A stretch of 64,000 nucleotides of DNA from Escherichia coli (lineage in GTDB: Bacteria > Pseudomonadota > Gammaproteobacteria > Enterobacterales > Enterobacteriaceae). Made by a program: the position numbers. This document shows, one piece after another, positions 54,801 through 57,800 of the stretch. The DNA lies in NCBI RefSeq assembly GCF_036507355.1, contig NZ_AP027877.1. One strand, 5' to 3'. How positions within the stretch are numbered: the stretch's first letter is position 1; each line of letters begins with the position of its first letter.

Positions 54801-57800
54801 ACTACATGTCGCACGAGCAGGACTGGCAGGAGTTCCGCGACGCAATTCGCATCACCCGCGAGATCATGCATCAACCGGCGCTGGATCAGTATCGTGGCCG
54901 CGAAATCAGCCCCGGCACGGAATGTCAGACGGATGAGCAGCTCGATGAGTTCGTGCGTAATCACGCCGAAACCGCCTTCCATCCGTGCGGTACCTGCAAA
55001 ATGGGCTACGACGAGATGTCCGTGGTTGACGGCGAAGGCCGCGTGCATGGGCTGGAAGGCCTACGCGTGGTGGATGCGTCAATTATGCCGCAGATTATCA
55101 CCGGCAATTTGAACGCCACGACAATTATGATTGGCGAGAAAATAGCGGACATGATTCGTGGACAGGAAGCGCTGCCAAGGAGCACGGCGGGATATTTTGT
55201 GGCAAATGGGATGCCGGTGAGAGCGAAAAAATGAGTCGTGATGTGAACTAACGCAGGAACCGATCAGATTGAGAGTTACCGTTCCAGAGAGGGGGGCTGA
55301 ATCCTTATATAAACACTGAGGTAACTCTCATGCTTCATAGTGACAACCTCGCCAGCAAATTCTAAGCGGACTCGTTCAATCTGGCTGATGAAGGTGCTAT
55401 GAATGCACTGATAAACCGCAGGTGAAATGCCACTCAGCTTAAGAATTACGCCGCTAGTGTTCCTGGCTATGGTGACTTGTTCACTCCCGCTCACGGTTAG
55501 CATATACGAAAAGGGTTCTTGAAACGAGGACAAAAATAAGTCAGACCAAAACAACGTGGAGCTTTAAACACGATTCGTATAATTTATTAGCAGTGATTTA
55601 TTTTTACTCTTCTTTAGTTAATCATCATGCTTAAATATTTTTTAGCACAAGATTATCGCTTCGCTAACATTTTAGTTTACATTGATTTCCAATTGATAAT
55701 AAAAAGTTGTTAATAAGTTTATGCGAAAAATAAAAATTGTTGAAATACTCTCCAGCAAACGAATGCAAAATAAACAAACTGAGGTTTACAAAAAAACAAA
55801 AGCTATTCAAAAGAACATTTTTAATTTATTAGCAGAGTTCATTAACAATGGTTTACTCACGACCAGAAAATTAAAGAACACCTTGCAATAATATGTATTT
55901 ATAAATTCATATCATTGATATTAAACTAATCTCACCTTCTACCTTATAATTTCACCAACCAAAAACAAAAGAAAAATCAATTAGATACACAATAAAGCGT
56001 TCTCGCAAGAAATAATGTCAAATATCTCAAACTAATAAAAACAACTAAAACATTAGACGTAACACACATCCCACACGACCTGTCGCTCATAGCTTTTATA
56101 TTTATTTTTTCACATCAATGTAGATAAAAACACGCATTAAAAATGATTTGTAGAAAAGCTGCACAATAAATAGTTCATATTTAATCTGTTGCGTAGAACT
56201 ACTATTCAAAAAATCTTATTAATGAGATAATGAGATTACATCGATAACGTTCTGATGGCAGGCATACTTATCTGGGTGTGCCTCTTTTTTTTACAACTGT
56301 ACACGGTGGCGTATGACGAGAAAATATCTCACACAGGATGAAGTCTACAGGCTGATGGATGCAGCCCAGAGCATGTCCTTTCCTGAAAGAAATCGCTGTC
56401 TAATTATGATGGCTTTCATTCACGGTTTTAGGGCCAGTGAACTTCTTGATTTACGTTTATCCGATATTGATGCATCAGGAAAACAACTTAATATTCGGCG
56501 TATTAAAAATGGTTTCTCGACGACACATCCTCTTCTTCCTGATGAATATAATTTGATCAAGTTGTGGCTTAAGCAGAGGAAGTTAATTGAAAACGGAGTT
56601 GAAGGAGACTGGCTTTTTCTCTCCCGGAAACGCCGCCCTATCAGCAGACAACATTTTTTTTCTATCATTCGTGAGGCTGGAAAACGTGCAGGATTTGAAT
56701 CGCCACGGATAATCTAGACACTTCCGAGCCGTTGATAATACTGGTTTTCATATTCTGTCGGTGACATCTGATCGCTGGAACCATGCCGACGCTTACTGTT
56801 ATAAAACATTTCGATGTAATCAAAAATATCGCTGCGGGCTTCTTCCCGCGTTCCGTAGATCTTTTTCTTTATCCGTTCGCGTTTCAACAACTGGAAAAAG
56901 CTTTCTGCAACCGCATTATCATGGCAGTTACCGCGACGGCTCATGCTGCCATCCAGGCCGTGTGATTTCAGGAACGACTGCCACTCATGGCTTGTGTACT
57001 GACTGCCCTGATCCGAATGAACCAGCACCTGTTTTTGGGGATTACGGCGCCATACAGCCATCAGCAGTGCGTTCAGGACAATGTCCTTTGTCATCCGGGA
57101 TTGCATGGACCAGCCGATAATTTTGCGTGAGAACAGATCAACAACCACGGCAAGATACAGCCAGCCTTCGTGGGTCCTGATGTAGGTTATGTCCGTTACC
57201 CAACGCTTATCCGGAGCATCCGGATTGAACTGTCGCTGGAGCCTGTTGGGCGACACGATACTGGCCTCGCCTTTACGTGCCCGCGGGCTCCGGTATGCGC
57301 GAGGTTACCGACTGCGGCCTGAGTTTTTTAAGTGACGTAAAATCGTGTTGAGGCCAACGCCCATAATGCGGGCTGTTGCCCGGCATCCAACGCCATTCAT
57401 GGCCATATCAATGATTTTCTGGTGCGTACCGGGTTGAGAAGCGGTGTAAGTGAACTGCAGTTGCCATGTTTTACGGCAGTGAGAGCAGAGATAGCGCTGA
57501 TGTCCGGCGGTGCTTTTGCCGTTACGCACCACCCCGTCAGTAGCTGAACAGGAGGGACAGCTGATAGAAACAGAAGCCACTGGAGCACCTCAAAAACACC
57601 ATCATACACTAAATCAGTAAGTTGGCAGCATCACCGCCATCTTAAATGACTCTGAGGTGTCTGTTAAACCCGTGGCGATTCAATTGCCTGCAAAAGGAAC
57701 AACTAAAAAGCTGGTTTAGTGCCGTGCGTAGCCTCAATAATCCTATTGCATCGGCCTATCTCCAAGTACTTTTGCTCACTGGTGCTCGGCGTGAAGAAAT

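Follow-up and report, generated by a model that had tools for sequence, protein, structure and literature searches.

The 64-kb stretch of Escherichia coli DNA analysed here (the window) raises the question of how betA came to lie close to the cryptic prophage CP4-6, with an AT-rich tract, a recombinase gene fragment and pieces of two insertion sequences (IS) between them. An initial annotation took this interval for an island junction. Comparison of the sequence with K-12 and with other E. coli genomes makes it very likely that the betA–CP4-6 interval represents the fossil scar of an IS-mediated deletion from the chromosome; about 34 kb would be gone between ipbA (also named fimX or hbiF) and intF of CP4-6, and this high confidence applies to the deletion-scar reading as a whole.

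Gene order on both sides of the interval

In the left flank, colinearity with K-12 covers mhp, lac, cyn, cod, prp, yah and bet and extends to position 55339. The lac operon is intact, which, together with this colinearity, would rather favour E. coli over a classical Shigella lineage; an identical BetB occurs in many ordinary E. coli strains in which PAI-X is intact. The gene next to the interval is betA, coding for choline dehydrogenase (53564-55234, plus strand), which starts with TTG, as in K-12, and is colinear with K-12 and with PAI-X-bearing strains. It is followed by 105 bp of betA-ykgH intergenic DNA common to K-12 (55235-55339), which contains an 11-bp perfect inverted repeat (55270-55280 / 55320-55330). 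K-12 homology stops at 55339 and PAI-X starts at 55340. In the literature on PAI-X, FimX and hyxS (PMC3789825, PMC6083910, PMC8777976, PMC7545054), PAI-X of extraintestinal pathogenic E. coli is described as fimX/ipbA/hbiF - hyxS - hyxR - hyxA - hyxB/upaB, located between betA and ykgH (PMC3789825). Genomes with an intact recombinase indeed show the order betA-ipbA-hyxR-hyxA-hyxB-ykgH, and comparison with them recovered both hyxS, the cognate element downstream of ipbA, and hyxR.

On the right, colinearity with K-12 resumes at nucleotide 812 of intF and continues into CP4-6. The 3' part of intF, from codon 271 to the stop codon (57683-58272, plus strand), was identified on the basis of its identity with K-12 NCM3722 (98.6-99.7% from nucleotide 812 on) and of the K-12 map. 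Together with 12 codons of IS origin it forms a single in-frame fusion (ORF 57646-58272), and this chimeric IntF ORF gave no record in a public sequence look-up. Full-length IntF (466 aa) is not encoded: the catalytic domain is kept and the N-terminal DNA-binding part is gone. The genes yagN, ykgV, yagM, yagL, yagK and yagJ follow.

In K-12, the two flank points are separated by 29,186 bp, which on the K-12 map comprise yagP, paoABCD, yagU, ykgJ, ecpA-E, matA, ykgLOM, eaeH', rclABCR and ykgEFGH, and the missing part of PAI-X amounts to about 4.6 kb (hyxS, hyxRAB). Because both flanks are colinear with K-12, 29,186 bp of K-12-type DNA and about 4.6 kb of PAI-X would have been deleted. The initial annotation had remarked on the absence of the ykg, rcl and ecp genes downstream of betA, and indeed none of them is present anywhere in the 64-kb window, nor are hyxRAB, ykgH or hyxS. 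The ancestral order, deduced from other strains and not from a direct ancestor, would have been betA - PAI-X (AT-rich leader, ipbA/fimX, hyxS, hyxR, hyxA, hyxB) - ykgH...rcl...ecp...pao - yagP - intF - CP4-6. Among 5,426 complete E. coli genomes, none has either outer junction of the interval, and a conserved junction at this place is therefore not supported.

An integrase gene fragment with AlpA-like and prophage genes directly to its right could also suggest that CP4-6, or another element, was inserted beside betA/ipbA by its own integrase, with no chromosomal deletion. We regard such an integration as extremely unlikely, since the first 270 codons of intF are missing and its break coincides with an IS terminus and not with an attachment site, and since gene order and orientation are those of K-12 on both flanks, the missing block occupying, in K-12 as well as in PAI-X strains, exactly the place between these flanks. 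The island junction of the initial annotation is thus better described as a PAI-X/CP4-6 deletion scar, the joint of which is marked by both ends of a single IS.

The AT-rich leader and the ipbA fragment

The left arm of PAI-X is a gene-less AT-rich tract of 973 bp upstream of ipbA (55340-56312, plus strand). The absence of a convincing gene had already been proposed for the DNA after betA, and this description holds for the tract. Its GC content is 34% when the 105 bp of K-12 intergenic DNA are included (55235-56312; 1,078 bp) and 27% in its core (55560-56250), against 58% in betA and 51% in the whole window. A search for structured RNA in Rfam at E<=1 gave no match, and NCBIfam gave no match for the ORFs of the tract (the three longest ones and a 44-aa ORF annotated in O55:H7). 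Two ORFs of 56 and 48 aa are interrupted by stop codons in other alleles. A 92-aa ORF on the minus strand is open in most alleles and shares 78% amino-acid identity with a B2-type allele; it is apparently not selected as coding, because its amino-acid change was judged roughly proportional to the nucleotide divergence.

The leader was found in 1,889 of the 5,426 complete genomes, with identities of 81-99.7%. According to the diversity profile and the allele alignment, this variation is unevenly distributed: a hypervariable core of about 340 bp (~55750-56090) is among the most divergent DNA of the locus, pairs of E. coli alleles differing there by as much as 27%, and the proximal part of about 180 bp (56136-56312) is almost invariant across alleles. 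A terminator scan, RNA folding and allele comparison identified a terminator-like hairpin with a stem of 10 bp and, after it, a T-run that varies in length (56260-56293, plus strand); it ends about 20 nt upstream of the ipbA ATG. It folds at -19.3 kcal/mol (z-score -1.35), and the 14 alleles compared have all kept it, a single pair changing from G-U to G-C.

The recombinase gene with its long AT-rich leader had been interpreted in the initial annotation as a former phase-variation switch whose partner locus has been lost. The second half of this proposal stands, as the partner hyxS is gone. The possibility that the leader itself is, or was, an invertible switch with a lost target operon has some points in its favour: fim-type recombinases are reported (PMC6083910) to adjoin their switch in most cases, and a search of the leader for inverted repeats resembling switch borders gave, as its best pair, a repeat of 25 nt with 80% complementarity (55801-55825 / 56136-56160), the arms of which are 310 nt apart, a size similar to those of fimS and hyxS. 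Several observations nevertheless make it a most improbable reading. Indeed (i) an inversion polymorphism test found the leader colinear in 1,890 of 1,890 carrying records, and the hypervariable core, checked for a hidden inversion, also aligns colinearly, whereas the same method reveals genomes with inverted hyxS (15) as well as precise excisions of this element; (ii) alleles differ in the left arm of the repeat, with no compensating changes, so that complementarity is not maintained; (iii) no DNA similarity was detected between the repeat and fimS or the nanC-fimB region, nor between the whole leader or hyxS and these regions, the coding regions alone aligning (about 61%); and (iv) a cognate switch, located downstream of ipbA, is already known.

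This switch, hyxS, is described in PMC6083910 and PMC3789825 as the invertible element of IpbA/FimX that lies directly downstream of ipbA and drives hyxR. In intact relatives, its core inverted repeats TTCAAAATGTCAG are 272 bp apart (positions 7660-7672 and 7919-7931 of relative L002). The truncation point of the window corresponds to position 7463 of L002, and hyxS is located 197 bp further on. The reference orientation occurs in 1,781 genomes and the inverted one in 15 (15/1,892). The AT-rich tract is thus the surviving upstream (presumably promoter/regulatory) region of ipbA and not an invertible element; its position and the conservation of its proximal 180 bp point to a regulatory role. 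In a bolder proposal, to which we give a very low probability, the ipbA leader would be an undescribed functional unit: the hairpin could act as an attenuator, or form the 3' end of a small RNA, and so control fimX expression, and the divergent 340 bp would be compatible with a regulatory or silencing target under diversification. Separately, the N-terminal fragment of IpbA could be a dominant-negative binder at fim-type switches.

This fragment is encoded by the 5' part of ipbA (56313-56695, plus strand), which was identified by protein comparison, NCBIfam and the RefSeq annotation of homologous loci; the loci annotated as ipbA are 93-99.8% identical. The initial annotation had described 130 codons of a FimB/FimE-like recombinase without its catalytic half. 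Its description is sound, with 127 codons and 2 nt in place of 130, and over 128 aa the encoded protein has 98.4% identity with IpbA. It shares 48% identity with FimB and 44% with FimE, and comparison with the phage-type integrase IntF gave no significant match; the fragment is thus closer to FimB/FimE than to a phage integrase. Among NCBIfam models, NF007370 "tyrosine-type DNA invertase" scores highest (134 bits; XerD, 52 bits); the loss of a third of the protein keeps this score below the cutoff for full-length members (221). In an alignment with IpbA, FimB and FimE, the R-H-R-Y tetrad is incomplete: Arg40 (HGFRASE) alone is kept, as the gene breaks off at 56695, ahead of the HPHMLRH and RYTAS motifs. 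As the first of the four catalytic residues alone remains, the N-terminal 127 residues are predicted to be unable to recombine DNA. The fragment thus belongs by its sequence to the FimB/FimE-type tyrosine DNA invertase family, but is a gene remnant and not a functional member.

The ipbA' ORF continues into the adjacent IS up to a stop codon at 56717, giving a product of 134 aa, and the same chimeric ORF is present in four other public assemblies, in each case on a short contig. Contigs with 99.9-100% identity come from the samples ERR11525759 and SRR17480487, which are among the nearest relatives. The occurrence of the ORF in other assemblies, the intact upstream region and gene start, and the activity of FimX on fimS and ipuS besides hyxS reported in PMC6083910 could be taken to mean that the 134-aa product still binds fim-type half-sites and exerts a dominant-negative effect on FimB/FimE switching. 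We consider a retained function of this kind highly unlikely: the fragment bears no sign of selection, and frameshifts or truncations of ipbA occur in further lineages (such as O55:H7 DEC5B and FDAARGOS_943), which points to ordinary decay.

The two insertion sequences and the proposed order of events

The recombinase gene had been said to be cut by an IS3-family element, and a genuine terminus of such an element is indeed present at 56696. The transposase-distal 597-601 nt of a 1,229-bp element lie on the minus strand (56696-57296); they open at 56696 with the terminal inverted repeat TGAATCGCCACGG and include the C-terminal part of orfB (180 codons). This piece was delimited by its match to full copies (99.8% identity with those of L006 and L007, positions 2001-2597), by model NF033516 transpos_IS3 (259 bits, profile positions 202-369 of 369) and by junction comparison. 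Mapping of the junctions on IS references also revealed a second terminus of the same element, overlooked in the initial annotation, which abuts intF: its last 47 nt (1183-1229; window positions 57636-57682, minus strand), which agree with the end of the full copy at every position, carry the other terminal inverted repeat ...CCGTGGCGATTCA. Both terminal repeats (TG...CA) are therefore present: TGAATCGCCACGG is found at 56696, its complement ...CCGTGGCGATTCA ends at 57682, and both match the ends of full 1,229-bp copies. Element positions 598/602 to 1182 are deleted and orfA-orfB is not intact. The RefSeq name of the element is "IS3 family transposase", with nothing finer; ISEhe3 is a tentative guess, and the element is left unnamed here.

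Between these two pieces lies an IS1 remnant (57293-57635, minus strand), assigned by its match to IS1A, by model NF033558 transpos_IS1 and by its terminus, ...TTGGCAGCATCACC at 57635. It corresponds to IS1 nucleotides 1-343, is 99.4% identical to the IS1A of L004 and retains the left inverted repeat together with the whole of insA (91 aa, 57305-57580), whereas insB and the right inverted repeat are missing. The mid-element joint between the two IS, which had been placed at 57291/57292, is real; its actual position is between 57292/57293 and 57296/57297, because a base-by-base comparison with reference copies of both elements showed that they have GTAT in common (57293-57296). Since this joint lies at a 4-bp microhomology and at no IS terminus, it would result from illegitimate recombination and not from transposition.

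These features suggest the following order of events. A single 1,229-bp IS3-family element now bridges codon 128 of ipbA and codon 271 of intF, and everything between them would have been lost. The likeliest route to this large deletion would be homologous recombination between two directly oriented IS copies, one in ipbA and one in intF; alternatively, it could have arisen by intramolecular transposition of a single copy. An IS1 would next have inserted at nucleotide 1182/1183 of the IS3-family element, and an illegitimate deletion of about 1 kb across the GTAT would then have removed the insB part of IS1 and the centre of the IS3-family element. No complete transposase is left in either element, and the scar therefore appears frozen. 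The precursor insertions ipbA::IS and intF::IS were found in none of the 5,426 complete genomes.

The trinucleotide ATT is present on both outer flanks of the IS (56693-56695 and 57683-57685) and resembles the 3-bp target duplication of a simple insertion. It counts against the two-copy route, as two independent insertions would match by chance only, in about 1 case in 64. It could instead indicate that the deletion came first, ipbA having been joined to intF at a shared ATT by illegitimate recombination, and that the IS3-family element was later inserted there, duplicating the ATT. Indeed, other copies of the element appear to have duplications of about 3 bp (CGG in L006), and each gene, in its intact form, has ATT where the break falls (GGATT|AGC in ipbA, GATG|ATTGCC in intF). 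This order of events is nonetheless very unlikely: an IS landing precisely on an old joint is a priori far less probable than a 1-in-64 coincidence of two 3-bp duplications, and an IS-free ipbA-intF joint occurs in 0 of the 5,426 genomes. A deletion brought about by the IS3-family element itself remains the preferred reading.

Relation to known systems and predicted consequences for the strain

All components of the scar are already known. The segment after betA is a remnant of PAI-X: as in PAI-X, the tract follows betA directly, with the same AT-rich upstream DNA, and the 5' part of ipbA is 98% identical at the protein level. Unlike PAI-X, which measures about 6 kb and has four genes, the window keeps the left 1.36 kb, the 3' third of ipbA, hyxS and hyxRAB being gone, and its right neighbour is intF of CP4-6 and not ykgH. 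The fragment also resembles the FimB/FimE-fimS system, in that it is related to FimB and FimE within a family of tyrosine DNA invertases that measure only ~190-200 aa and that ipbA, like fimB, has a long AT-rich upstream intergenic region. It differs from this system in that the recombinase of the window is probably catalytically dead, no switch is present in the window and no DNA similarity of the leader to the nanC-fimB region or fimS was detected.

IS-mediated chromosomal deletions and nested, decayed IS clusters are common in E. coli and Shigella genomes. The IS of the window resembles such cases, as it bridges loci about 34 kb apart in relatives, contains a second, nested IS, and both elements are truncated and immobile; it differs from them by its inner joint, located at a microhomology and not at an IS terminus, and by the ATT shared by its outer flanks. 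The prophage side is 98.6% identical to K-12 CP4-6 and colinear from nucleotide 812 of intF through yagJ and the adjoining IS1, and differs from it by the loss of the first 270 codons of intF and by the deletion of the yagP-pao side of the prophage border.

For annotation, the fragment is an ipbA/fimX pseudogene and not a novel recombinase, the tract is the PAI-X leader and the locus is very probably a deletion scar. In a single step, the strain would have lost the FimX-hyxS-HyxR circuit, the E. coli common pilus (ecp), the RclABC hypochlorite response, the pao aldehyde oxidoreductase and ykgEFG. Published work has linked the FimX-hyxS-HyxR circuit to the switching of type 1 pili, to tolerance of nitrosative stress and to the chain length of the O antigen. 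The scar gives a useful prediction of phenotype and no new biological principle.

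Gene content downstream of betA and identity of the recombinase fragment

The end of betA (55234) is followed by an AT-rich tract, with GC content falling from ~58% in betA to 26-31% at 55550-56300 before rising again, and then by an ORF of 134 aa (56313-56717), 180 codons from the C-terminal end of an IS3-family transposase gene (56714-57256, minus strand), a complete IS1 insA gene (57305-57580, minus strand) and an ORF with tyrosine-recombinase similarity (57646-58272). The ORF list and the profile matches thus recovered all the elements listed in the initial annotation. A megablast comparison with 5,426 complete E. 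coli genomes showed that 55235-56695 matches, at 93-99.8% identity and in hundreds of genomes, a locus labelled in RefSeq as 'ipbA: tyrosine-type DNA invertase IpbA (also known as HbiF and FimX)'. Two strains, ES5 and 30859_5#29, have betT-betI-betB-betA, then a gene-free stretch of ~1 kb, then ipbA, hyxR, hyxA, hyxB and ykgH. This arrangement is the published island PAI-X, which consists of four genes (fimX, hyxRAB), has a conserved position and was found in 24 of 50 surveyed genomes (PMC3789825). PAI-X is absent from K-12, whose homology to the window ends 105 bp past betA, at 55339; position 55340 is therefore the first of the island, whose own left arm, upstream of ipbA, is the AT-rich tract.

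Homology to intact ipbA stops at 56695. Residues 1-128 of the fragment share 98.4% identity with IpbA, 48% with FimB and 44% with FimE, and have no significant match to the phage-type integrase IntF; among NCBIfam models, 'tyrosine-type DNA invertase' scores highest (134 bits; XerD, 52 bits). The assignment to the FimB/FimE type, which a better phage-integrase match would have overturned, is therefore retained. According to the alignment, the first catalytic arginine (R40) is the sole catalytic residue before the break, and the HxxR motif and the tyrosine lie beyond it; the fragment indeed lacks its catalytic half, as first noticed, and its product cannot be an active recombinase. The leader upstream of ipbA most similar to that of the window (99.7%) belongs to FDAARGOS_943 (L001 7021-13459), a strain in which PAI-X decayed independently through a frameshift in ipbA, an IS2 that splits hyxR and an IS600, followed by ISSfl3, that truncates hyxA. 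The ipbA gene of O55:H7 DEC5B is likewise frameshifted.

A collinear deletion bridged by one insertion sequence

Over 56696-57292, the window shows 99.8% identity to part of an IS, labelled in RefSeq only 'IS3 family transposase'. From two full copies in unrelated contexts, this element measures 1,229 bp, with ends TGAATCGCCACGG...CCGTGGCGATTCA. The window copy begins precisely at the element terminus (56696), so ipbA was struck by a genuine transposition end. The match to the element extends to about position 597-601, where IS1 takes over; of IS1, nt 1-343 remain (left terminus at 57635; insA intact, insB missing). The description of the recombinase gene as cut by an IS3-family end joined mid-element to a truncated IS1 is thus borne out. 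The mid-element joint is real, and its placement at 57291/57292 is accurate to a few bases; GTAT (57293-57296) is common to both elements, and the joint was formed at this microhomology rather than by transposition. The initial annotation overlooked 57636-57682, which exactly matches the final 47 nt of this IS3-family element and contains the other terminal repeat. The element thus keeps both ends, which alters the picture: IS1 inserted at nt 1182/1183 of the IS3-family element, and a later internal deletion of ~1 kb eliminated both the remainder of IS1 and the central part of its host. The IS1 beside yagJ (62574-62917), also found there in K-12, shares only 92% identity with the remnant in the scar (57293-57636), so the window holds two IS1 isoforms. 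The ORF at 57646-58272 is an in-frame chimera of 208 aa, with its ATG within the IS3-family end and 12 IS-derived codons, and carries IntF residues 272-466, which comprise just the catalytic domain; the records contain no identical protein.

To the left of the scar, colinearity with K-12 runs from mhp by way of lac, cyn, cod, prp and yah to bet. From 57683 onwards, the window matches K-12 at 98.6-99.7% identity, entering intF, which encodes the integrase of cryptic prophage CP4-6, at nt 812, and it stays colinear to the window end (intF, yagN, ykgV, yagM, yagL, yagK, yagJ, IS1). The two breakpoints lie 29,186 bp apart in K-12, where the interval contains yagP, paoDCBA, yagU, ykgJ, ecpEDCBA, matA, ykgL, ykgO, ykgM, eaeH', IS3, rclCBA, rclR, ykgEFG and ykgH. 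Neither the genes of this block nor the lost PAI-X genes were found anywhere in the 64-kb window, in agreement with the reported absence of ykg, rcl and ecp. Since both flanks keep K-12 order and the intervening genes are missing, the arrangement is a collinear deletion bridged by a single IS, not an island integration site, and the reading as an island junction is abandoned. With the lost part of PAI-X (~4.6 kb, measured in one strain), the deletion totals ~34 kb. Three segments of the otherwise colinear window have no K-12 counterpart: 2864-4697 (between mhpR and lacI), with two ORFs of 262 and 317 aa; 29157-34419 (between yahK and yahJ), which, judging from its ORFs, resembles an ABC sugar-transporter operon; and 44633-49274 (between pdeL and betT), where gene calls in related loci give an autotransporter of ~1,320 aa.

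Deletions of this kind classically arise by recombination between two directly repeated IS copies. Here, one copy in ipbA and one in intF, in direct orientation, would have recombined. No ipbA::IS or intF::IS precursor was found among complete E. coli genomes (0 records covering at least 80% of the query in one search, 0 records in another). ATT lies immediately outside each end of the IS3-family element (56693-56695 and 57683-57685), although ~34 kb separates the two source loci in relatives; such matching flanks resemble the target duplication of one simple insertion and do not sit quite well with the two-copy route. ATT is native to both breakpoints (GGATT|AGC in ipbA, GATG|ATTGCC in intF), and the match could be a 1-in-64 coincidence. 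It could also result from intramolecular transposition into an ATT target or, least likely, from a deletion at ATT microhomology followed by IS insertion exactly at the joint.

The hyxS switch and the leader of ipbA

PMC6083910 (citing Bateman & Seed 2012), PMC8777976 and PMC3789825 describe hyxS as a FimX-specific invertible element with 16-bp inverted repeats, located beside fimX and controlling hyxR, and report its inversion for FimX alone. Comparison with the intact locus of ES5 (L002) recovers this cognate element: the strongest inverted repeat lies between the ipbA stop and hyxR and has the core TTCAAAATGTCAG (L002 7660-7672 / 7919-7931). The window truncation point corresponds to L002 7463, before both repeats, so the entire switch was deleted; the suggestion that the recombinase had lost its partner locus was correct. 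As a control for switch detection in assemblies, hyxS was queried in the reference orientation and as an in-silico inverted version, of which the former matched over at least 80% of its length in 1,781 genomes and the latter matched in 15; hyxS is inverted in 15 of 1,892 genomes, and ~96 others carry other disruptions. Within L002 7643-7948, the right half-site of hyxS is a near-palindrome, with the core TCAAAATGTCAG in both orientations. In one baboon isolate, PapRG-06-5 (L027 1340-1440), hyxS was excised precisely (272 bp) between directly oriented core copies, which leaves an ipbA-hyxR gap of 58 bp.

The leader had itself been proposed as a former phase-variation switch. Under the test that reveals hyxS inversion, it is colinear in all 1,890 records, and its best inverted repeat, 25 nt with 80% complementarity and arms 310 nt apart, is not maintained across alleles; this candidate was rejected, the known switch being hyxS, downstream. 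Among 13 distinct E. coli alleles, a moderately conserved distal region is followed by a hypervariable core (55750-56090; mean pairwise difference up to 0.27, several indels), colinear and not inverted, and by a proximal region with almost no variation: pairwise difference is at most 0.03 in the 180 bp ahead of ipbA and in its coding part. The hypervariability may reflect relaxed constraint, diversifying selection or old recombined haplotypes. The leader has no Rfam match, and none of its ORFs has a family match or behaves as coding across alleles. In the invariant part, a terminator-like hairpin (56260-56283; 10-bp stem, -19 kcal/mol, z-score of only -1.35) with its T-run (56260-56293, plus strand) ends ~20 nt ahead of the ipbA ATG; the T-run varies in length among alleles, and in one allele (L022) a G-U pair is replaced by G-C. 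Also devoid of an Rfam match, this hairpin may be an attenuator within the leader or may form the 3' end of some small transcript. From its position and conservation, the leader is probably the regulatory region of ipbA.

Spread and significance of the scar

The 134-aa chimeric ORF, six of whose codons derive from the IS, is present unchanged on four short contigs in public data. Two of these are 99.9-100% identical to the window; the other two combine a B2-type leader (97.8% identical to that of NU14) with window-type ipbA SNPs. On contigs L008 and L011, compared with 55299-56748, the same ipbA::IS junction and the identical ORF stand on a B2-type leader allele only ~93% identical to the window, next to an ipbA part with the window-type SNPs. 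Tentatively, given only two diagnostic SNPs, these sequences point to one ancestral insertion that recombination later moved onto another leader background, and not to a hot spot.

The initial observation is thus confirmed and its interpretation partly right. The components, namely PAI-X with IpbA/FimX, the IS3-family element, IS1 and CP4-6 intF, are all known entities, and the scar is the product of ordinary genome decay driven by ISs. The result is useful for annotation, and it predicts that the hyxS/HyxR circuit has been lost together with ecp, rcl, pao and ykg functions.
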